Source of the DNA: Christensenella sp. UBA4263
GTDB taxonomy: Bacteria; Bacillota; Clostridia; Christensenellales; Aristaeellaceae
DNA length: 64,000 nucleotides
Reading direction: 5' to 3'
Assembly: GCA_002395225.1 (NCBI GenBank)
Contig: DGWH01000092.1
Coordinates: forward strand, 23,325-87,324
In this document: piece by piece, positions 8,367-55,587 of the stretch
How the letters are laid out: each line of letters opens with the position of its first letter
Position numbering within the stretch: position 1 is the stretch's first letter
Notes under the pieces: generated by a model
Told to the model about the DNA's origin: nothing
Seen by the model: only the letters and a program-made list of their open reading frames with translations
Databases searched by the model: none
Translations under genes and position numbers: made by a program

Positions 8367-9197
8367 ATGTTTTTGGATTCGCTGGCCGGTGTCCTTCTCG
8401 GATTCACGGTGGCCTTCCAGTCCTGGGGATTCATGATGCCGCATCAGAATCCCATGGATACGCTGATTCTGGTCAATAAGCAGAACAGAGCGCCCGTTCA
8501 GCCGGTCATGCTGGTAAAACCGGATGTGCCGCCGGTGGAGGAACGTATCTCGGAAAACATCTATATGCGCCCGGATGCCGCCGCGGCACTTGAACAGATG
8601 TTTGAGGCGGCAAAACAGGACGGGATCATGCTTTATGCGCTCAGCGGTTTTCGCAGCTATGCCACCCAGAAAGCAATTTACAACCGGAAGGAACGGCCGG
8701 AATACGGGATTTCCAGCGTCGCCAAGCCGGGGTATTCGGAACACCAGACCGGCCTGGCCATGGATTTTGAGGGCGAATCGACCCTGGGAAAAGGGCTGAT
8801 AGAGGCCATTGCGGATTCGCCTGAGGGCATCTGGATGGCGCAGCACTGCTGGGAATATGGCTATATTCTCCGCTACCCGAAGGAAAAGGAATCCATCACG
8901 GGCTATATCTACGAGCCCTGGCATATCCGGTACGTGGGAACAGAGGCCGCGCTTGAAATCCGTGATCTGGGTGTCACATTTGAGGAATATATCCAAATGA
9001 TCCGAAGCGAGCGGGTCAGGAGTCTTGAACAGGAGGAGATTATTGTTGAACAGAATACGACTGGGACTGATGATGCTGGGTCTGCTGATCCTGACGGGAA
9101 CCGGGTTGGCGGAGCGTCTGGATCTGGCGACGATGGAAAACGCGGAGCAGGCACAGACGCTGATCGAGAAAACATGGGATTATCCGATTCCCTATGA
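8367..9197 (+). CDS. D-alanyl-D-alanine carboxypeptidase, VanY/peptidase M15B family (copy 1)
   Basis: SGFRSY, SEHQTGLAMD and EPWHIRYVG motifs. The low-complexity C-terminal tail overlaps the next gene by about 150 nt. Confidence 0.75.
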   Translation: MFLDSLAGVLLGFTVAFQSWGFMMPHQNPMDTLILVNKQNRAPVQPVMLVKPDVPPVEERISENIYMRPDAAAALEQMFEAAKQDGIMLYALSGFRSYATQKAIYNRKERPEYGISSVAKPGYSEHQTGLAMDFEGESTLGKGLIEAIADSPEGIWMAQHCWEYGYILRYPKEKESITGYIYEPWHIRYVGTEAALEIRDLGVTFEEYIQMIRSERVRSLEQEEIIVEQNTTGTDDAGSADPDGNRVGGASGSGDDGKRGAGTDADRENMGLSDSL

Positions 9198-9792
9198 GCT
9201 CCTTAAAACCAGTGACTATATCGTGCTGGCCAATAAGACGCATCTGCTGGATGAGAACTATATTCCGCAGGACCTGGTGAAGGTAAAGGTACGGAAAATC
9301 AGTTCAACGCCCATTGAGATGCGGGAAGCGGCGTCGGATGCGCTTACGGCGCTGTTTGAGGCCGCCAAGGCAGACGGGATTTCCCTGTATGCCCATTCCG
9401 GATACCGGAGTTACCGGACCCAGAAGACGATGTACTACAACCGCCTGAAGAAGAACAACGGGAAAGACGACGGCGTTGTGGCGGTGCCCGGTTCATCGGA
9501 CCATCAGACCGGTCTGGGAATTGATGTCATCAACAAGGCCGGCATCGGAAAGAAATTTACCAGTGCGTTCGCAAAGACGAAAGAGGGCATCTGGCTGGCC
9601 GAACACTGCTGGGACTTCGGATTCATTATCCGCTACCAGAAAGATAAGGAAGATCTGACCGAGATCATCTATGAGCCCTGGCATCTTCGCTACGTGGGTA
9701 TTCAGGTTTCCGAATACCTCCGCCAGAGCAACCTCTGTCTGGAAGAGTTTACGGAGGAATGGCAGAGGGCCGTGCAGGCGTATGAAAACTGA
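9043..9792 (+). CDS. D-alanyl-D-alanine carboxypeptidase, VanY/peptidase M15B family (copy 2, secreted)
   Basis: SGYRSY, SDHQTGLGID and EPWHLRYVG motifs. The signal peptide is LGLMMLGLLILTGTGLA. The start is probably TTG at 9043/9046 after AGGAGGAG at 9031-9038; the listed ORF starts at 9025. Confidence 0.75.
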   Translation: MLNRIRLGLMMLGLLILTGTGLAERLDLATMENAEQAQTLIEKTWDYPIPYELLKTSDYIVLANKTHLLDENYIPQDLVKVKVRKISSTPIEMREAASDALTALFEAAKADGISLYAHSGYRSYRTQKTMYYNRLKKNNGKDDGVVAVPGSSDHQTGLGIDVINKAGIGKKFTSAFAKTKEGIWLAEHCWDFGFIIRYQKDKEDLTEIIYEPWHLRYVGIQVSEYLRQSNLCLEEFTEEWQRAVQAYEN

Positions 9793-9920: not shown

Positions 9921-10934
9921 ATGACCATTCTATGTACGGGCGGTGCCGGATATATCGGCAGCCATACCTGTGTGGAGCTTCTGAATGCCGGTCACGAGGT
10001 CGTGATCGCGGATAACCTTTATAACAGCAACGTCCATGTTCTTGAGCGGATTGAGGAAATCACCGGGAAAAAGGTCCGGTTTTATGAGGCGGATGTCACG
10101 GATGCTGCCGCTGTTGCCCCGATCTTTGAGGAAAACAAGATCGATGCCATCATCCACTTTGCCGCCTATAAGGCGGTGGGCGAGTCCGTGGCCAAGCCGG
10201 TTGAGTATTACCGGAACAATCTGGACTGCACGCTGACCATGCTGGAGGCCATGAAGAAGTATGACGTGCGCCGCTTCATCTTCAGCTCCTCCGCCACGGT
10301 CTACGGGATTCCGGATCATATGCCCCTGGATGAGACCATGCCCACCAGCGCCACCAACCCCTATGGCTGGACAAAATACATGAACGAGCGCATCCTGACG
10401 GATGCAGCCAAGGCAAACCCCGAATGGTCCATCGTGCTGCTCCGGTATTTCAATCCCATCGGAGCGCATGAGACCGGCCGGATCGGCGAAATGCCCAACG
10501 GCATCCCCAACAACCTGTTCCCGTATATCCTTCAGGTTGCCCTTGGCAAGCTCCCGTATCTGCACGTATACGGCAATGACTACAACACCAAGGACGGCAC
10601 CGGCGTGCGGGATTATATCCATGTCGTCGACCTGGCCAAGGGCCATGTTCTGGCGGCGGAGTATGCACAGACGCATACCGGCACAGAGGTCATCAATCTT
10701 GGCACGGGACACGGATACAGCGTGCTTGAGATTATCAAGACCTTTGAAAAGGTCAACGGAATTGAAATCCCGTACAAGATCGAAGCAAGAAGAGCCGGGG
10801 ATATTGCCGAGTGCTATGCAGATGCCTCAAAGGCTAAGAAACTCTTGGGCTGGACTGCCACCAGGGAAATCGACGATATGTGCAGGGATGGCTGGCGCTG
10901 GCAGAAAAACAACCCGAACGGATATGAAGGTTAA
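9921..10934 (+). CDS. galE: UDP-glucose 4-epimerase
   Basis: ILCTGGAGYIGSH Rossmann motif, YGWTKYMNE (YxxxK), and full-length GalE-like sequence. The ATG at 9921 follows GGGAGG. Confidence 0.9.
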   Translation: MTILCTGGAGYIGSHTCVELLNAGHEVVIADNLYNSNVHVLERIEEITGKKVRFYEADVTDAAAVAPIFEENKIDAIIHFAAYKAVGESVAKPVEYYRNNLDCTLTMLEAMKKYDVRRFIFSSSATVYGIPDHMPLDETMPTSATNPYGWTKYMNERILTDAAKANPEWSIVLLRYFNPIGAHETGRIGEMPNGIPNNLFPYILQVALGKLPYLHVYGNDYNTKDGTGVRDYIHVVDLAKGHVLAAEYAQTHTGTEVINLGTGHGYSVLEIIKTFEKVNGIEIPYKIEARRAGDIAECYADASKAKKLLGWTATREIDDMCRDGWRWQKNNPNGYEG

Positions 10935-10951
10935 CTGAATCAGAATACAAA

Positions 10952-11003
10952 AACAGGATTTCAGCGCCGGACATTGCCAGAGCATGAAATCCTGTTCCTT
11001 TTG
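10952..11003 (+). terminator. galE terminator (large-loop hairpin)
   Basis: AACAGGATTTCA, a 21-nt loop, then TGAAATCCTGTT followed by CCTTTTG. Confidence 0.55.
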
Positions 11004-11014
11004 AACGCAGAGAG

Positions 11015-11285
11015 TGGGCCTGCCGCCACAGCGGCAGTTTATCAAAGAATGTGCACCAGAAAAGCAGCGGTGCCATAAGACCAAACTATGGCTCATTGAG
11101 GAGTAGTGGCCCTGTCGCATAGCGACAGTTAAGTCAAATCCAGGCCTCATACAATGTTGATCCGGCAAACGACCAACATTGAGGCTCGCAAAGGAGTGGC
11201 CCTGTCACGCAGTGACAGTTAGGCAAATCCAGGCCTCATGCCATTGCTTCTTCGGCAAATGACAACTGTGAGGCCTGCAAAGGAG
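11015..11285 (+). repeat. Three tandem ~89-93-nt structured leader-repeat units (A 11015-11103, B 11104-11196, C 11197-11285) directly upstream of purB
   Basis: Each unit starts TGGCC(C)TG, contains the hairpin CTGYCRC-loop-GYGRCAG, and ends in (A/G)AGGAG. Units B and C add CAAATCCAGGCCTCA...TGAGGC(C)T. The last AAGGAG serves as the purB RBS. Confidence 0.8.
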
Positions 11286-11290
11286 AAACG

Positions 11291-12586
11291 ATGATAGATC
11301 GGTATACAAGCAAGCGCATGTCGGAGCTGTGGAGTCTTGAACACAAGTATCAGACATGGCTGGAGGTAGAGCTTCTGGCGACAGAGGCCTGGGCCGTGCT
11401 GGGCGCTGTTCCGCAGGAGGATGCGGTGAACATGCGCAGAAACGCACGTTTTACCGTTGAGCGGGTCGCTGAAATTGAGGAAAGCACCCGACATGATGTG
11501 GTGGCATTTACACGCTGCGTGGCGGAGAGCCTGGGCGGGGAGAGCAAGTACCTGCACTTCGGGCTGACCAGCACCGACGTGGTGGATACGGCGATGTCCT
11601 GCACCGCCGTACAGGCCTGCCGGTATCTGCTGGAGGATATCCGTGAAATGCGGGAGATTCTGAAAGCACAGGCGATCCGGTATAAACAGACGCCGATCAT
11701 GGGCCGGACCCACGGCGTGCATGCGGAACCCACCACACTGGGGCTGAAGTTTGCCCTGTGGTATGAGGATATGGGCCGCAATCTTGACCGGATGGAGCAT
11801 GCCCTTGAGACCATCCGGGTCGGGAAGATCTCCGGCGCGGTGGGCACCTATGCCAATGTGGATCCCTTCGTCGAGCAGTACGTCTGCGAGCATCTGGGAC
11901 TCAAGGCCGCGCCCATCAGCACGCAGGTGCTCCAGCGGGACAGGTACGCGGAGTTTTTATCCGCGGTCGCCATTACCGGTTCATGTCTTGAGAAGATCGC
12001 CCTTGAAATCCGGAGCCTGCAGCGAACGGAGATCCGTGAGGTGGAGGAACCGTTCCGCAAAGGGCAGAAAGGCTCCTCCGCCATGCCGCACAAGCGCAAC
12101 CCGATCAACTGTGAAAAAGTCTGCGGCCTCTCACGGCTCCTGCGCGGCTATGCCATGACCGCCATGGAAGATGTGGCGCTGTGGCACGAGCGGGATATCA
12201 GTCATTCATCGGTTGAACGGATCATCCTGCCGGATGCCACCTCGCTCCTTGAGCATATGTTCATCACCATGAACCGTATCCTGAAGGACCTGTTTGTGTA
12301 TCCGGAAAACATGCGCCGTTCCATGAGCATGTCCTATGATCTCCCGTACTCCCAGCAGGTCCTCCTGACCCTGATCGGCAGCGGAATGCTGCGGGAAACC
12401 GCGTATGATCTGGTTCAGAAATGTGCCATGCAGGCGTGGGAAGGTCAGGTTTCCTTTAAACAGCTGATCCTTGAGAATGAGGAGATCCGGAAGCATCTCT
12501 CGCAGGAGCAGATCAATGCGTGTTTTGAGCTCTCGCATCATCTGAGGCATGTGGATGAGATCTACCATCGGCTCGGCCTTGAATGA
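11291..12586 (+). CDS. purB: Adenylosuccinate lyase
   Basis: 431 aa. Contains MIDRYTSKRMSELWS, the fumarate-lyase signature GSSAMPHKRNP, and a full-length PurB-like sequence. Confidence 0.9.
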   Translation: MIDRYTSKRMSELWSLEHKYQTWLEVELLATEAWAVLGAVPQEDAVNMRRNARFTVERVAEIEESTRHDVVAFTRCVAESLGGESKYLHFGLTSTDVVDTAMSCTAVQACRYLLEDIREMREILKAQAIRYKQTPIMGRTHGVHAEPTTLGLKFALWYEDMGRNLDRMEHALETIRVGKISGAVGTYANVDPFVEQYVCEHLGLKAAPISTQVLQRDRYAEFLSAVAITGSCLEKIALEIRSLQRTEIREVEEPFRKGQKGSSAMPHKRNPINCEKVCGLSRLLRGYAMTAMEDVALWHERDISHSSVERIILPDATSLLEHMFITMNRILKDLFVYPENMRRSMSMSYDLPYSQQVLLTLIGSGMLRETAYDLVQKCAMQAWEGQVSFKQLILENEEIRKHLSQEQINACFELSHHLRHVDEIYHRLGLE

Positions 12587-27203: not shown

Positions 27204-27328
27204 TAAAAGGAGCCGGCAGCGGTTAACGTGAATGTGGCATTTGCCGCAGCAGCACATTGCCGGATATGAACACCGGATATTTCGCGATGCCGAAAGCCCA
27301 TACTGCGGCTGAGGAAGATAGACATCTT

Positions 27329-28928
27329 ATGAAGCATTTTAATACGACAGCAGTGTGTCTTCCATCAAAGCATTACATGGTTGATCTCTCCCAGCGGGTC
27401 AAAGAAATAAAAACACTTGTCGATGAGGGAAAGTATTTCACCATCAACCGCGCGAGGCAGTATGGAAAGACAACGACTTTAACGGTTCTGAAACAAATAT
27501 TGAAAACAGAGTATCTCGTTTTGTCATTAGACTTTCAACGTGTTGATCATGATGTTTTTGAGAACGGCGCGACTTTTTCACAGGCAATGTCCCGACTTAT
27601 CATGGATGCGCATGAGTTTGAAGATGTTCCTGTACCGGAAAAAACACTCTCTGCACTCGAAGAATTGAACAACTCGGATCCTCAAAAAATAAAGATGGAC
27701 AATTTGTTCCGAATTCTGAAAAGGTGGATAAAGCATTCTGAGCAGCCAATCGTCCTTATGATCGATGAAATAGACAGCGTAACAAATAATCAGGTGTTTC
27801 TTGACTTCCTTGCTCAGCTTCGTGATGGATATATCGGACGCGATACGAATTCATCACCGGCTTTTCAGTCCGTGATTCTGGCCGGTGTAACAGATGTAAA
27901 GCATCTGAATAGCAGGATTCCTCCAGAAAATCAGCATAAGGTAAACAGTCCATGGAATATTGCTGCTGACTTTGACATTGACATGAGTCTGTCTGAGGAT
28001 GGCATCCGGGGAATGCTGGATGAATATGAAGCAGATCATCGTACTGGAATGAATACCGGAGAGATTGCAAAGTCTATCCGGGAATATACCAATGGTTATC
28101 CATACCTTGTAAGCAGAATCTGTCAGAAAATCGATACGGATCTTGTCCCCGGTGTGTTTAACTCTCCACATGATGCGTGGACACTGTATGGAGTAGATGA
28201 AGCGGTAAAAAAGATCCTTTCAGAACCCAATAACTCCCTGTTCGAGTCTCTCACAGGAAAGCTGACAAATTATCCAACGCTTCGCAGTCAGCTTCGTGCA
28301 ATTCTGATGCGCGGGGAGACATTTGCATGGCTCCCTTATAATGAAGAGCAGCAGCAGCTTTTTAATGTATGGGTTTATCCGAAATAACCACAATAGAGTA
28401 GCGCTGTCCAACAGAATCTTTGAGATGTTGTTATACGCACATTTTATTGGGGAAAGTAATCAGAATAATGCTCTGAAACAGATCGCGGCTAGGATGAAGT
28501 CGGCCTTTGTGGACGAGGAAGGCGGACTTGATATTCCGAAGATAATGGATCATTTTATCAGGGAGCATAACAGAATTCATAAAGACAAAACCGATACGTT
28601 CCTTGAAGAAGAGGGACGGGAGCGTTTCATCACCTACGTGTCAGGAATCATTAACGGAACAGGAACTTACAGCGTAGAGGAACAGCTGAGAGATTATCGG
28701 CGAACGGATCTTGTCATTCATTATTTGGGCAGAAAATATGTCATTGAACTGAAGATCTGGCACGGAGAACGATACAATTCAGAGGGCGAAAAACAATTGA
28801 CAGGATATCTTGACTACTGGAACCTGAATACGGGATATCTGCTGAGTTTCAATTTCAATAAAGAGAAAGAATCGGGAGTCAGACGGATTCAGATAGGCGA
28901 TAAAGTCCTGTACGAAGGAACGGTCTGA
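27329..28928 (+). pseudogene. Frameshifted P-loop ATPase / PD-(D/E)xK nuclease-like gene in a low-GC segment
   Basis: ORF 27257..28387 carries FNTTAVCLPSKHYMV...RQYGKTTTL and LMIDEID. ORF 28323..28928 carries RTDLVIHYLGRKYVIELKIWHGE. The two overlap in different frames around the (CAG)n/T5 tract at 28346-28363. This segment is visibly more AT-rich than its flanks. Confidence 0.7.
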
Positions 28929-30556: not shown

Positions 30557-30811
30557 TCATAAAAAGTAGTACACCGGTCTGGAGGAGAAACGTGTCCTTT
30601 GCCGGTCGAAGCGGCGCACCTGACTCACAATCCGGTCAAGTTCGAAACGGCTCAGACCCTGCTGGGGCAATTCCGTCTGCGGTCTGTCAGGCCTCGATGT
30701 CGGTTCAGAGGAAACGAACAGAGAACTGTGCGTGCATAAGAGAACGAGCAGCACAGCTGAAAAAAAGAGCAGGGGAAGCACAAGAAAGATGAAAAGAGCC
30801 GCTTTAATCAT
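30557..30811 (-). CDS. Small single-pass membrane protein (84 aa)
   Basis: MIKAALFIFLVLPLLFFSAVLLVLL TM helix followed by a charged tail. The ATG at 30811 is preceded by AAAGGAGG, which is supplied by a leader-repeat unit. Confidence 0.6.
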   Translation of the reverse strand: MIKAALFIFLVLPLLFFSAVLLVLLCTHSSLFVSSEPTSRPDRPQTELPQQGLSRFELDRIVSQVRRFDRQRTRFSSRPVYYFL

Positions 30812-30820
30812 GGAATGTTC

Positions 30821-30950
30821 CTCCTTTGCAGTCTTCAATTTGGGTCATTAGCCGGAGCAGCAATTACCTGAGGCCTGGATTTACCTAACTGTCGCTGCGC
30901 GGCAGGGCCATACCTTTGCGAGCCTCACTGTTGGTCTGTTGCCTGGATAC
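30821..30950 (-). repeat. Leader-repeat units on the minus strand (one full unit 30821-30910 plus a truncated upstream unit)
   Basis: The reverse complement reads cgcaaaggtaTGGCCCTGCCGCgcaGCGACAGTTAGGTAAATCCAGGCCTCA...ctgcAAAGGAGG. This aligns base-for-base with units B and C at 11104-11285. Confidence 0.8.
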
Positions 30951-30992
30951 CGGCCGGGCTGTCCATTGCCCGGGAACGATCTCGATGGGACA

Positions 30993-31021
30993 ATTATATT
31001 CTTCGTTTTGAAGAAAGTCAA
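30993..31021 (-). promoter_or_regulatory. Consensus promoter of the small membrane protein gene
   Basis: Minus strand: TTGACT, a 17-nt spacer, then TATAAT. Confidence 0.65.
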
Positions 31022-39213: not shown

Positions 39214-39242
39214 TTGACAATATAATGGAAATCTTCTACAAT
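39214..39242 (+). promoter_or_regulatory. Consensus promoter of the LRR/glycosidase operon
   Basis: TTGACA, a 17-nt spacer, then TACAAT. A ~195-nt leader follows. Confidence 0.65.
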
Positions 39243-39345: not shown

Positions 39346-39432
39346 TGGCCTGCCCTCTTAGCGGCAGTTTGTCAAATAGGAGCACTGGGAATGCCACGGT
39401 GCCGAAAGACCGAGCTACGGCTCATTAAGGAG
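39346..39432 (+). repeat. Leader-repeat unit (type of unit A) supplying the RBS of the LRR gene
   Basis: TGGCCTGCCctcttagcGGCAGTTTGTCAAATAGG...GGTGCCGAAAGACCGAGCTACGGCTCATTAAGGAG aligns with 11015-11103. Confidence 0.75.
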
Positions 39433-39439
39433 CAGAAAC

Positions 39440-40297
39440 ATGTTCAAACAAGTTTGCCGTTTTTTTCCCGTCTGGATTATTCTGATTCTGCTTTTTGCCT
39501 CAGCCTGTGCAGAACCCATCACCATCTGCGGGGCAGAGTTTGATACAGAGGATGAATACATCGATTTCGGAAAAGTCAAGGTAGAGAACATCCAGGAACT
39601 TGCCGAAGCGATTCCGAAAATGCCCAATCTTCGAAAAGTAGACATGTTTGCCACCAATATCAAGAAGGAAAACATGGCATATCTTTTTGATACGTTTCCT
39701 GAGGTAACCTTTGGGTGGACCATCCATATCTGGGAACATACCCTCCGTACGGACCAGACAGCCTTTTCCACGCTGCACGGTTCCAGCCCGACTCCGCCTC
39801 ACACCGAGAAAGATTTCGATGTCCTTCGCTACTGCAAGCAGCTGAAGGCGCTTGATCTGGGACACAACTGGATTGAGGATATTTCCTTCCTCGAATATGT
39901 GCCGGACCTTGAGGTTCTGATTCTCGGACGAAATCAGATCAAGGACATTTCTCCGATCGCCGACCTGCATCATCTGGTGTACCTTGAGCTGTTCAGCAAT
40001 CATATCAAGGATGTCTCACCGCTTGCCGGTCTGACCTCTCTCAGAGATCTGAACCTTTCAAACAATCCCATTGAAGATCTGACCCCGCTGATGGGGATGA
40101 AATGGCTTGACCGTCTCTGGCTTGGCTTCTTTATGAATTATCCCAAAGAACAGGAAGCGGAAATCAAGGCCGCACTTCCCGAATGTGAGTTTTTCTGGGA
40201 CTGGGGCCCGACTGCAGGAACATGGAGAGAACATCCTCATTATTTTGAGCTCTATGATTTCTTCAGGACAAACGTTTATGTGCCGTTTAAGGAGTAA
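39440..40297 (+). CDS. Secreted leucine-rich-repeat protein (copy 1)
   Basis: A signal peptide followed by about five 22-aa LRRs (LDLGHNWIEDISFL, LILGRNQIKDISPI, LELFSNHIKDVSPL, LNLSNNPIEDLTPL). Confidence 0.8.
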   Translation: MFKQVCRFFPVWIILILLFASACAEPITICGAEFDTEDEYIDFGKVKVENIQELAEAIPKMPNLRKVDMFATNIKKENMAYLFDTFPEVTFGWTIHIWEHTLRTDQTAFSTLHGSSPTPPHTEKDFDVLRYCKQLKALDLGHNWIEDISFLEYVPDLEVLILGRNQIKDISPIADLHHLVYLELFSNHIKDVSPLAGLTSLRDLNLSNNPIEDLTPLMGMKWLDRLWLGFFMNYPKEQEAEIKAALPECEFFWDWGPTAGTWREHPHYFELYDFFRTNVYVPFKE

Positions 40298-43338: not shown

Positions 43339-43394
43339 GCAGCGCAGGTCAGACCGTGCTGCCTTCCACCATTCAGGACCTGATTACGCTGCAG

Positions 43395-43436
43395 TGGAAT
43401 GACCGGCATTGAGGCCTGGATTTGATAAAGCGGCTC
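43395..43436 (-). repeat. Solo partial leader-repeat fragment
   Basis: The reverse complement TTTATCAAATCCAGGCCTCAATGCCGG matches the core of the repeat family. Confidence 0.55.
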
Positions 43437-43481
43437 AGGTAGATGACCAGAGCTGATCCCAGAGGAGAAGGAGATTTATAC

Positions 43482-54538: not shown

Positions 54539-54660
54539 CATCACAGAAAAACACCGTCATGTCCGGAGAAGCGGCCCTACCGCACTGCGGCCGGCTGTCC
54601 GATCCGGGCCGGAACAGAGCTGCTCCGGCCAAAGACCAGCGTTGAAGAGGAGGCTGTCTC

Positions 54661-55587
54661 ATGCAGAGAACACACCTGAGACCGGCCAGACTGAAAGCAT
54701 TCAGGAAGGAACTTCCGTTTCATCTCATGCTTCTGCCGGCGGTCATTCTTGTCTTTATCTATATGTACGTCCCGCTGGGCGGACTCATCATTGCCTTTCA
54801 GAAATTCATCCCTGCCAAAGGACTGTTTGGCGAACAGAAGTGGGTAGGTCTTGACAATTTTATCTATCTGTACCGTCTCCCCGGCGCCATTTCCGCGCTG
54901 CGCAATACCGTTATCATCGCCTTTTATAAGATTATTCTGCATCTGATCATCCCCATCACCGTCTCCATTCTCCTCAGTGAGATTAAATCCGATCCGTTCA
55001 GACGCACCGCACAGACCCTGATTTATCTGCCTCACTTTCTGAGCTGGATCATCATGGGCGGCATTCTGATCGATATTCTTTCCCCGACAGACGGCATCGT
55101 CAACCGGTTCCTGGGGCTGTTTGGCGTCGGCCCGTATTTCTTCCTGGGCAGCAATGACACCTTCCGGTTTACCATCATCTTTACCGATGTCTGGAAAGAA
55201 TTCGGCTTTAATACCATCGTGTATCTGGCGGCAATCACCAATATTGATCCCAATCAGTACGAGGCGGCAACCATCGACGGCGCCAATCGCTTTCAGCGGA
55301 TGATTTACGTAACGCTGCCCAATATGCGGATGATAATCGTCCTGATGATGGTCCTCTCCCTTGGCAATGTCCTTAACGCAGGATTTGATCAGGTATTCAA
55401 CCTCTACAGCAAACAGGTATATGAAACCGGAGATATTCTGGATACCTTCATTTACCGGATCGGTCTGATTGATGCACAGTTCGGTGTGGCAACGGCCATG
55501 GGAATGTTCAAGTCCGTCGTTTCCACGCTGTTCATCTCCATCAGCTATTACTGTGCATACCGTTTCGCGGACTACCGTATTTTCTAA
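54661..55587 (+). CDS. ABC transporter permease (LplB/sugar type)
   Basis: 308 aa with ~6 TM segments and the EAA-loop region YEAATIDGANRFQRMIYVTLP. Confidence 0.8.
   Translation: MQRTHLRPARLKAFRKELPFHLMLLPAVILVFIYMYVPLGGLIIAFQKFIPAKGLFGEQKWVGLDNFIYLYRLPGAISALRNTVIIAFYKIILHLIIPITVSILLSEIKSDPFRRTAQTLIYLPHFLSWIIMGGILIDILSPTDGIVNRFLGLFGVGPYFFLGSNDTFRFTIIFTDVWKEFGFNTIVYLAAITNIDPNQYEAATIDGANRFQRMIYVTLPNMRMIIVLMMVLSLGNVLNAGFDQVFNLYSKQVYETGDILDTFIYRIGLIDAQFGVATAMGMFKSVVSTLFISISYYCAYRFADYRIF

Follow-up and report, generated by a model that had tools for sequence, protein, structure and literature searches.

Probable targeting and regeneration of Shine-Dalgarno sequences by a family of small hairpin repeats in a rumen Clostridia genome

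A repeat family at ribosome-binding sites

Our analysis of the repeats upstream of purB in the 64-kb window (the whole stretch of DNA that was analysed) indicates that they are very probably copies of a small, non-coding and non-autonomous mobile DNA element that targets the Shine-Dalgarno (SD) sequence and regenerates it. The element has defined boundaries and no terminal inverted repeats (TIRs), lies at SDs in one specific orientation, has dispersed recently, and has been gained or lost between close relatives. The 4.76-Mb genome, a rumen Clostridia MAG, contains ~520 units of ~88 bases in 389 arrays (520 units on 119 of the 171 contigs, counted with an iterated nhmmer profile at E≤1e-3), so the tandem units at purB are real and repeated beyond chance, in numbers far above those seen in the first-pass annotation, which had described a modular repeat family in 5' leaders. 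Many units lie at contig ends.

The placement of the arrays is far from random. Nearly all (364 of 389, 94%) are intergenic, and 283 of 326 (87%) are co-oriented with the downstream gene; 166 of these 283 end <20 nt from the downstream start, and the distance from array end to start codon is 5–15 nt for most. A test that is independent of gene callers agrees with this strong bias: in 99 of 154 arrays an ORF of at least 60 amino acids begins 4–13 nt past the terminal AGGAG, compared with 92 of 542 AGGAG sites taken at random from the genome and, in an antisense control, 17 of 148 cases. A co-oriented upstream gene precedes 196 of the 283 co-oriented arrays, which therefore look intercistronic. 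The proximity to start codons that had been proposed thus stands, but the 5' leader is not what determines placement; the SD itself is. By sequence, ~6–8% of the host genes now appear to be served at translation start by a repeat-borne site.

The family is narrowly distributed. BLAST with the consensus against 40 relatives gave no match outside G000 and was too insensitive; a covariance model then found six more carrier species, so that the carriers are seven of the 50 species of one genus. None of ~400 genomes elsewhere in the order has the family, and no viral contigs with the family pattern were found.

The purB array and other units in the window

The three head-to-tail units before purB (adenylosuccinate lyase, 11291..12586, plus strand, with Pfam Lyase_1 and ADSL_C matches) were found much as originally placed, all on the plus strand. 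Unit 1 (11016..11103, 65 bits) is of type B and ends in GAGGAG, unit 2 (11108..11196, 84 bits) is of type A and ends in AAAGGAG, and unit 3 (11198..11285, 77 bits), also of type A, carries at 11279–11285 (plus strand) the AAAGGAG that is the presumed ribosome-binding site (RBS) for the purB ATG at 11291. Unit 3 is only ~79% identical to its neighbour, and so is not a duplicate of it. Units 1 and 2 are also present in the close relative RGIG8456, whose array has two units against the three here; unit 3 is missing there, and unit 2 is joined straight to AAACGATG. In four more distant species (G056, G046, G048 and G005) the galE-purB spacer is empty and has only the native GGAG. The array here is flanked on its 5' side by AGAGAG (11009..11014, plus strand), a relic of the native purB SD that is homologous to the TTTTGAAAAATGGAGAG that precedes purB at the empty sites in G056 and G046. 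The idea that the repeats donate the SD is supported at this locus, where the GGAG of the outgroups has decayed to AGAGAG 5' of the array and purB now stands behind a unit-borne AAAGGAG; we infer that ribosomes use the SD carried by the unit. A pattern search found no promoter-like site upstream of purB.

Five other loci in the window carry units. One and a half units had been described on the minus strand upstream of an ORF for a small membrane protein (ATG at 30811), and they are there: a type A unit at 30822..30909 (minus strand, 76 bits), whose AAAGGAG precedes the ATG, and, 5' of it, the 3' half of a further unit at 30912..30960 (minus strand, end approximate; 14.7 bits over 30912–30992). 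The single unit reported before the gene for an LRR protein (ATG at 39440) is likewise present, as a type B unit ending in TAAGGAG at 39346..39432 (plus strand, 59 bits). Promoters had been proposed at these two loci, and sigma-70-like pattern matches do lie ~175–190 nt upstream, TTGACT-17-TATAAT at 31021–30993 (minus strand; 30993..31021) and TTGACA-17-TACAAT at 39214..39242 (plus strand); both are pattern matches only. What had been taken for a solo fragment at 43395–43436 is in fact a degenerate whole unit (43376..43469, plus strand, 26 bits) that ends in GAGGAGAAGGAG and abuts the ATG (43482) of an FRG-domain gene. Two units had been overlooked: one at 54573..54650 (plus strand, end approximate, 43 bits), ending in AGAGGAGG before an ABC-permease gene (ATG at 54661), and a degenerate type B unit at 27237..27319 (plus strand, 24 bits) before an AAA-ATPase-like gene (ATG at 27329).

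Unit anatomy

The unit start GGCCCTG, the terminal (A/G)AGGAG, and the hairpin CTGYCRC-loop-GYGRCAG with its compensatory T-A/C-G changes all hold in the larger alignment, as do the two variants of the second module, which define type A (395 units) and type B (123 units). Both hairpins are conserved over the additional copies with compensatory changes (RNAalifold on the mixed subfamilies recovered hairpin 1 only, and hairpin 2 comes from a hand-supplied structure), and hairpins 1 and 2 of one unit differ in sequence. Hairpin 1 varies among species, being CTGTCGC/GCGACAG here, CTGTTTGC/GCAAACAG in G005 and CCAGCAC/GTGCTGG in G048, and across these species the start codon next to the unit persists, as do the flanking GGAG...AGGAG. 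The units have no conserved ORF or start codon (an ATG occurs at consensus positions 61–63 in a minority of copies), and no promoter-like site was found inside them; the start codon lies beyond the unit by 5–15 nt, within native sequence also conserved at empty sites.

The two ends of the unit are not equivalent. Arrays end in GCAAAGGAG, and the 3' end of units reads CCTGCAAAGGAG; the GCAA directly 5' of the 3' AAGGAG is conserved and belongs to the element. The 5' flank has the consensus (A)AGGAG or AAAGGAG, followed by N, and is random farther upstream, including the positions that correspond to the conserved GCAA. These ends bear on whether the units could be a classical MITE mobilised by a DDE transposase that duplicates a preferred 5–6-bp AGGAG or AAGGAG target, in which case both flanking SDs would be target-derived. 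Direct AGGAG repeats do flank the units, with a single copy at empty sites, and AGGAG is present on both flanks in 55 of 88 young copies, where a strict 5-bp AGGAG target-site duplication (TSD) would look alike; the overall correlation between 5' and 3' ends is weak (z=2.4), though in the direction such a MITE would give. The informative cases among the 88 young copies are the non-consensus flanking pentamers, which match in three and differ in ~29, and this argues against a duplication that varies with the target. In addition, the consensus has no visible TIRs (its ends GGCCCTGTCG... and ...GAGGCCTGCAAAGGAG have just the tetramer GGCC in common), a conserved GCAA before only the 3' AAGGAG is at odds with two target-derived flanks, and the fixed orientation relative to the target is left unexplained by a symmetric DDE reaction. 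A DDE-mobilised MITE is thus an unlikely explanation for the family.

Evidence on RNA-level function

The first-pass annotation had called the repeat an RNA-level cis element. In its strongest form this would be a functional cis-acting RNA module under selection at a regulon, such as an RBS insulator, a leader bound by a protein, or an element acting on translation or mRNA stability. The units do lie within predicted transcripts, downstream of the promoter-like sites at the two loci above; they are predicted to form two stable hairpins with the SD free, and their single-stranded motifs CAGTTTGTCAAA and GCCRAAAGACCA persist across subfamilies and species. However, G:T and A:C mismatches occur at similar frequency in the stems (55 and 42, respectively, in hairpin 1, and 205 and 171 in hairpin 2), so there is no sign of purifying selection specific to the RNA strand, and the predicted accessibility of the SD (0.49) is like that of shuffled controls (0.45, p=0.19). 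The RNA-level nature of the element therefore finds no support here. Moreover, the downstream genes are functionally unrelated, presence and copy number vary between genomes that are ~96% identical, and orthologues in sister species do without units. Rfam contains no matching family, in agreement with the earlier failure to recognise a named motif: the only matches in the window at gathering thresholds are two tRNAs, and at E≤10 the sole match to 10900–11350 is a 13-nt chance match. We consider it very improbable that the units are primarily a regulatory RNA kept by selection, although such a role would be compatible with mobility if the element were exapted.

Gain, loss and array growth

Direct evidence for mobility comes from orthologous sites. 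In the MAG RGIG8456, which is 95–98% (about 96%) identical to the genome analysed here, 14 of the 36 arrays that could be mapped differ. For example, RGIG8456 has two units at a locus (L031/C165) that is an empty site here, GAGAAGGAG|GAAAAGAGATG, and it has one unit at L052/C57 and three at L011/C33, where we find none. Of 336 units, 72 have a counterpart at a different locus with an identity of at least 95%, and 100%-identical units occur at unlinked loci with unrelated flanks. The empty and filled orthologous sites and these identical dispersed copies bear out the first-pass reading of the family as a mobile element, not a riboswitch. The conditions named there as refuting it (an Rfam match, copies unbiased in orientation and position, and hairpins without covariation) all turned out the other way.

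Within arrays the younger unit is the 3'-most one in 58 cases and not in 25 (p=8e-5), so additions tend to be made on the side of the start codon. Adjacent units have a median identity of 86%, against 73% for units of one type paired at random, and thus part of the growth of arrays is local duplication or conversion and not transposition. Neighbouring units are mostly of one type (AA 42, BB 15, AB+BA 15), and no order of types was found within arrays (AB 9, BA 6). A GC-skew proxy computed on contigs shows no clean replication-strand bias (IS200/IS605-type transposition would favour the lagging-strand template): the sense strand is G-rich for 59% of co-oriented arrays and 73% of genes.

The similarity of neighbours and the single-type arrays would also be expected if the family had spread without any dedicated transposition, by replication slippage, unequal crossing-over, microhomology-mediated template switching or gene conversion between leaders flanked by AAGGAG. 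The imprecise deletions that leave 3' remnants at two loci (L004/C96 and L050) fit such recombination, as does the fact that no transposase has been found. On the other hand, complete, precisely bounded units have been gained at naive sites with a match of only 5–7 nt, many unlinked loci have 100%-identical units, and purB unit 3 is no copy of its neighbour. The retention of the hairpins across subfamilies and species also suggests that they are recognised by some machinery. Recombination by itself is, in our opinion, quite an unlikely source of the whole family.

A model for insertion and the search for a mobilising enzyme

We favour a mobile element that would always integrate the same way round, directly 3' of an (A)AGGAG SD motif, and that itself ends in the GCAAAGGAG already noted. 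The old SD would stay behind as the 5' flank of the element, the native spacer and start codon would be unaltered, and the gene would then use the SD carried by the element, so that the insertion would be tolerated. Since each unit recreates the target, arrays could grow head to tail; the preferred site of addition would be the SD closest to the start codon, with local duplication contributing as well. Insertions at intragenic AGGAG sequences would presumably be purged by selection.

The anatomy fits an HUH-type single-strand transposition, in the style of either IS200/IS605 or IS91, with the enzyme acting in trans; we regard this insertion chemistry as a reasonable possibility with somewhat less than an even chance of being correct. 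Elements of the IS200/IS605 type have no TIR or TSD, have subterminal hairpins, insert in strict orientation 3' of a 4–5-nt target, and show seamless presence or absence. The family here is like them in its oriented insertion 3' of a short target, in having subterminal hairpins and in that no TIR or TSD is seen, but unlike the ends of IS608 its left and right hairpins differ in sequence. PATEs (IS200/IS605-derived) and the REP/RAYT systems are moved by HUH Y1 single-strand transposition (see also PMC2817692). The genome has two PF01797 (Y1) loci, and the only intact gene (C60:73357-73716) carries end hairpins of the CCCCACATGATGTGGGG type that are unrelated to those of the units; Y1 genes are found in 23 of the 50 genomes irrespective of the element, and the carriers G046, G056 and G050 have none or only fragments of them. 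We therefore reject, for now, an IS200-type Y1 transposase as the mobiliser. IS110 was also discarded as a candidate, its genes not tracking the element across the genus.

IS91 and ISCR elements (HUH Y2, rolling-circle) also have no TIR or TSD, and they insert in one orientation beside a specific tetranucleotide, with the far end in a similar short motif. The family shares with them oriented insertion at a specific motif and a similar motif at the far end. Their known targets, however, are tetranucleotides of the GAAC/CAAG type and the target here is AGGAG; we know of no 88-nt non-autonomous derivatives of IS91 or ISCR. Strong matches to PF04986 (the IS91-type Y2 HUH transposase) are present only in the four genomes richest in the element (G000, G050, G005 and G048); PF04986 is absent in three of the seven carriers (G047, G046 and G056), two non-carriers have weak partial matches, and the co-occurrence is confounded by shared ancestry and by the incompleteness of MAGs. 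Ends like those of the units are missing from the IS91-like copies that we inspected: the covariance model matched nothing in these loci except ordinary units at neighbouring SDs in G048, and the G000 copy is flanked by CCCCTCAATCTTGAGGGG hairpins. An IS91-type Y2 HUH transposase is a possible enzyme, as a lead only.

Searches for a parent element in this MAG, which has no multi-copy IS families, gave no pair of 5'-only and 3'-only profile matches 0.1–6 kb apart, and no inverted unit pairs around single genes. The hairpin-1 motif is present outside units at only ~17 sites, none of which led to a full-length parent. Protein clustering also gave no multi-copy transposase family, a result that is uninformative since MAGs usually lose multi-copy IS elements.

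It is also possible, though less likely than not, that the family represents an undescribed transposition strategy, in which the near-universal SD would serve a very small hairpin element as a genome-wide "safe harbour" that is always rebuilt, with polar accretion at start codons. The SD would then be recognised directly, for example by guide-like pairing or by a dedicated HUH or other single-strand enzyme.

Comparison with other small repeats

The REP2 repeats of Neisseria meningitidis and the IR repeats of Borrelia plasmids are dispersed and non-coding, have two internal stem-loops and supply an RBS upstream of ORFs (Delihas 2011, PMC3184786). The present family resembles them in all of these features, and in having no TIRs. 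REP2 also carries a promoter and an ATG, and is present in a few tens of copies (Delihas 2011, PMC3184786); the units here have neither promoter nor start codon, number ~520, and have proven empty and filled sites. Tandem head-to-tail arrays, SDs on both flanks and demonstrated SD-specific insertion are not reported for REP2 or IR in that review (PMC3184786). The pneumococcal repeats BOX, RUP and SPRITE, to which the first-pass annotation had likened the family in part, are modular, structured, transcribed, intergenic and lineage-restricted, RUP being a MITE with TIRs and TSDs and BOX a boxA-(boxB)n-boxC mosaic (Croucher et al. 2011, PMC3049150). Our Firmicute family is likewise modular, structured, intergenic and lineage-restricted, with a variable module composition, but BOX, RUP and SPRITE are neither tied to the SD nor regenerate it.

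The tandem arrangement here, direct, intergenic and co-oriented with genes, is like that of MIRUs. These, reportedly described by Supply and colleagues in 1997, are said to be 40–100-bp direct tandem repeats in the intergenic spacers of operons, co-oriented with genes and variable in copy number among strains; they are also said to contain short ORFs overlapping the stop and start codons on either side, a feature that our units, with no conserved ORF, do not share. To our knowledge MIRUs are not SD-bounded or hairpin-structured in the manner of this family. REPs mostly form inverted pairs at gene 3' ends, unlike the direct arrays on SDs seen here.

Significance

Small dispersed repeats are common; what is novel here is a repeat that targets and regenerates the ribosome-binding site, which is apparently undescribed (we found no description of SD-targeting repeats in the literature). 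Regeneration of the SD would account for the rise of a parasite to ~500 copies in so compact a genome while costing it little. The mechanistic question that this poses is that of an enzyme recognising AGGAG and the unit hairpins. On the practical side, the arrays break MAG assemblies and could mislead RBS-based gene callers, and the family is a natural, portable "hairpin + RBS" cassette. For the host, the same structured 88-nt module would stand in the 5' UTR or at the operon junction of ~6–8% of genes, and because element content shifts within ~4% sequence divergence, the family may rapidly generate variation in how translation starts, how mRNA is processed and how operons are coupled.

The repeat in the window

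The three-unit array that the first-pass annotation described upstream of the adenylosuccinate lyase gene purB (11015-11285) matches its description. Sequence inspection and a covariance model place its plus-strand units at 11016-11103, 11108-11196 and 11198-11285; each begins (T)GG(G/C)CCTG, contains the CTGYCRC-NNN-GYGRCAG hairpin and ends in (A/G)AGGAG, and the final AAAGGAG lies 5 nt upstream of the purB ATG at 11291. The other copies named there are also real on inspection, and the covariance model finds nine in the window (five good units, one half unit at 30912-30960 on the minus strand, and three that had been missed or under-read). A unit at 54573-~54650 had been overlooked, a copy at 27237-27319 overlooked or under-read, and the supposed solo fragment at 43395-43436 is indeed a copy, not as a mere fragment but as a decayed whole unit (43376-43469, plus strand). 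All nine abut and face a start codon. The genes downstream are unrelated (adenylosuccinate lyase, a small membrane protein, an LRR protein, an FRG-domain protein, an ABC permease and an AAA-ATPase-like protein), and the Rfam scan that had been proposed returned no match for the repeat, whether gathering thresholds or E<=10 were applied.

Promoter matches upstream of units are sequence-pattern matches only (putative promoters). A terminator-like hairpin lies downstream of galE at 10953-10996 (AACAGGATTTCA...TGAAATCCTGTT followed by CCTTTT), and a search of the interval from there to purB (11004-11290) gave no sigma-70-like promoter. Elsewhere in the window, a long coding region contains, at 935-2453, four tandem repeats of 381 bp that are nearly identical (89% matches), with weaker copies over 127-2785, and two adjacent paralogous genes contain 80-88% identical stretches 760 bp apart (8823-8938 and 9583-9698), indicating a tandem gene duplication upstream of galE.

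Genome-wide abundance and relation to genes

The host assembly (4.76 Mb, 171 contigs, 52.8% G+C; the window is C70:23325-87324) was searched, with a cut-off of E<=1e-3, using an nhmmer profile that was seeded with the window copies and taken through one iteration. This gave 520 units (40.6 kb in total) on 119 contigs, in 389 arrays (290 solo, 72 double, 23 triple, 3 quadruple and 1 quintuple) with a period of 85-90 nt. Two sub-families have a common 5' half and different second modules, type A with 395 units (consensus GGCCCTGTCGCGCAGCGACAGTTTGTCAAATCCAGGCCTCAGACAAAGCTGCTCCGGCAAATGACCAACATTGAGGCCTGCAAAGGA(G)) and type B with 123. Many contigs of this genome start or end within a unit or array (e.g., C70:53-140, C81:52-139, C98:32-209, C128:1-86 and C80:2-148), so assembly of these metagenome-assembled genomes (MAGs) often breaks at the repeat.

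With genes called by a simple codon-usage caller made for this analysis, 364 of the 389 arrays are intergenic, and the bias in orientation and toward start codons seen in the window holds genome-wide: among the 326 arrays with both neighbours called, 283 are co-oriented with the downstream gene, 166 of them stopping <20 nt short of its start. A caller-independent test agrees; an ORF of >=60 codons opens 4-13 nt past the terminal AGGAG in 99/154 arrays, versus 92/542 random genomic AGGAG sites and 17/148 antisense controls. The upstream neighbour is also co-oriented in 196 of the 283, so units are as often at operon junctions as in promoter-proximal leaders; of the placement originally given, in 5' leaders, what stands is that units follow the Shine-Dalgarno (SD) sequence, while the leader is not the determinant. 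Roughly 6-8% of all genes have a unit on their presumed ribosome-binding site.

Mobility of the units

We think it very probable that the units are a non-autonomous mobile element that targets SD sequences and regenerates them. When each species was represented by a single genome in a pattern scan, dozens of matches came from 'Clostridia bacterium RGIG8456' (a water-deer abomasum MAG), whose flanking DNA is 95-98% identical to the UBA4263 genome. At contig C165 the empty UBA4263 site reads GAGAAGGAG|GAAAAGAGATG, and in RGIG8456 the bar is the exact position of two units, B then A (locus L031); RGIG8456 has one unit versus none at L052/C57 and three versus none at L011/C33. Such orthologous sites, differing by whole units, are direct evidence of unit mobility. 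Among the 36 RGIG8456 arrays with both flanks mapped to UBA4263, unit number is the same in 22 and different in 14, and in some cases the difference is an imprecise deletion from which the 3' end with its SD survives (L004/C96). Inside the UBA4263 genome, copies of >=95% identity exist at other loci for 72 of the 336 full units, and 100%-identical units have entirely unrelated flanks.

The purB array of RGIG8456 consists of units 1 and 2 only, with GCAAAGGAG of unit 2 joined directly to AAACGATG. Unit 3 of UBA4263 is only ~79% identical to unit 2 (Tandem Repeats Finder gives the pair an 89-nt period with 79% matches), and is therefore not a slippage duplicate. We also compared purB and its upstream spacer with five other species of the genus. 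Genomes G056 and G046 retain the galE hairpin, followed by ...TTTTGAAAAATGGAGAGAAGTTATG and ...CCTTGAAATGGAGAACATCAATG, respectively, and G048 and G005 have GGGGAG and AAAGGAG, respectively, before the purB start; in all four, purB is without a unit, though the family occurs elsewhere in each genome. The homologous ...TTTTGAACGCAGAGAG of UBA4263 forms the 5' flank of its array, so the native purB SD has stayed behind and decayed, and purB now lies behind a unit-borne AAAGGAG. This history is the clearest support for the original proposal that the repeat donates the SD.

Ends of the element and growth of arrays

When the sequence outside the first unit was aligned for 261 arrays, GGCCCTG proved to be preceded by conserved A (66%), G (70%), G (65%), A (88%) and G (63%) plus one variable base, with random sequence farther upstream. 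The 3' end is C-C-T-G-C-A-A-A-G-G-A-G, its AAGGAG conserved at 84-97%. Each unit is thus bracketed by two SD motifs, one common to neighbouring units; the units contain no terminal inverted repeats. The brackets might be taken for a target-site duplication, and AGGAG is present on both sides in 55 of 88 young units. The two flanking motifs are only weakly correlated, however (z=2.4, 154 arrays), and young units of this set with a deviating flank are mismatched between sides in ~29 cases and matched in 3, which argues against such a duplication. These comparisons argue that the two motifs are not copies of each other, that insertion would adjoin the target, and that the 3' AAGGAG would be part of the element.

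The closeness of a unit to its best-matching copy at another locus served as a proxy for age. By this proxy, the younger of the two end units is the 3' one in 58 arrays and the 5' one in 25 (p=8e-5). Of the units that share >=97% identity with a distant copy, 19 stand at the 3' end of their array, 8 at the 5' end and 5 inside it, and six separate arrays have the same young variant at their 3' end. Addition of new units thus favours, but is not restricted to, the SD adjoining the start codon. Adjacent same-type units have a median identity of 86% versus 73% for random pairs, so local duplication or conversion also contributes.

Structure

The type A consensus is predicted to fold into a 7-bp hairpin 1 and a stem 2 of ~10 bp, which encloses a large loop and stops 4 nt short of the free AAAGGAG. 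In 62 diverse units, 83% of cells in both helices are standard pairs, versus 28-51% in slid controls, and the covariation first noticed in a few copies persists, with both-sided changes in 9 of 13 pairs. Stem 2 is kept across types with different sequences (GGCC/GGCC in A, GAGCA/TGCTC in B). Between species the sequence of hairpin 1 changes wholly and the hairpin is retained (CTGTCGC/GCGACAG in UBA4263, CTGTTTGC/GCAAACAG in G005, CCAGCAC/GTGCTGG in G048); the GGAG...AGGAG brackets, CAGTTTGTCA and GCCRAAAGACCA are kept in all three.

This conservation might suit the RNA-level cis element envisaged in the first-pass annotation, but the tests lend that part of the interpretation no support. G:T and A:C mismatches in the stems are about equal (55 versus 42 in hairpin 1, 205 versus 171 in hairpin 2), so individual copies decay without the G:U tolerance expected of a selected RNA, and predicted SD accessibility does not differ from that of shuffled-unit controls (0.49 versus 0.45, p=0.19). 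Structure seems to matter more for propagating copies, that is, for mobilisation, than for resident ones.

Distribution

All genomes compared are MAGs. By the covariance model, the genus has 7 carriers among its 50 species genomes: UBA4263 itself (G000), G050 (evidently RGIG8456), G005, G048, G047, G046 and G056. These are among the largest of the genus (3.4-5.0 Mb versus 1.7-3.3 Mb for most non-carriers; one non-carrier, G063, has 3.8 Mb). The same model found no member in ~400 genomes spanning 174 genera of the order, bar one marginal match; viral contigs gave none and metagenome contigs a handful. Five contigs of an unrelated Chthoniobacterales MAG, Co_metawrap_1254 (Verrucomicrobiota; loci L012, L022, L027, L041 and L055), match the hairpin-1 pattern GGCCCTGYCRCNNNGYGRCAGTT, one of them also by the nhmmer profile; they may represent an independent family with a similar hairpin.

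Candidate mobilising enzymes

The element lacks terminal inverted repeats and any clear target-site duplication, has a fixed orientation beside a 5-nt target, carries a similar motif at its far end, and has subterminal hairpins and seamless empty sites. Such anatomy is typical of HUH single-strand transposons (IS200/IS605, IS91), which the units therefore resemble, and HUH-type chemistry is a tentative suggestion by analogy; for an element of 88 nt, movement in the form of single-stranded DNA would be easier to picture than movement in that of a double-stranded circle. A GC-skew proxy puts 59% of co-oriented arrays versus 73% of genes on the G-rich sense strand, with arrays relatively enriched on genes opposing the local majority orientation; this result, a proxy only, differs from the clean bias expected of a strictly lagging-strand mechanism.

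Comparison of Y1, IS110 and Y2 transposases across the genus genomes did not single out a mobilising enzyme. Y1 is scattered over 23 of the 50 genomes regardless of the element, as IS110 is scattered among them, and the intact IS200-type Y1 copy of UBA4263 (within C60:72539-73716) has its own unrelated end hairpins (CCCCACATGATGTGGGG / CCCCTCACTTGAAGTGGGG); its position ~330 nt from a three-unit type-B array looks like coincidence. Strong matches to Y2 (IS91; Y2_Tnp and Zn_Tnp_IS91 domains) are confined to the four most element-rich genomes, G000 (C141:7220-8674, locus L136 2721-4175), G050, G005 and G048, and in G048 (C64) a unit lies on the SD of an IS91-type gene. Y2 is a candidate but a weak lead, because shared ancestry confounds the association, three carrier genomes lack it, and no unit-like ends were found at IS91-like loci. 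The UBA4263 MAG contains no multi-copy IS families at all, so absence of an enzyme from it means little.

Relationship to known repeats

Among the nearest published analogues are the mycobacterial MIRUs, co-oriented tandem units that lie between cistrons and contain overlapping mini-ORFs. So are the Neisseria REP2 and Borrelia IR repeats, which likewise supply a ribosome-binding site, together with promoter and ATG, in tens of copies (PMC3184786). Unlike the present units, neither these nor MIRUs are known to be SD-bracketed or shown to insert at SDs; the likeness to BOX and RUP is limited to the general idea of modular structured repeats (PMC3049150). We found no SD-targeting repeat in the literature. 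Small dispersed non-autonomous repeats are thus familiar, and what is unusual here is the well-documented SD target.
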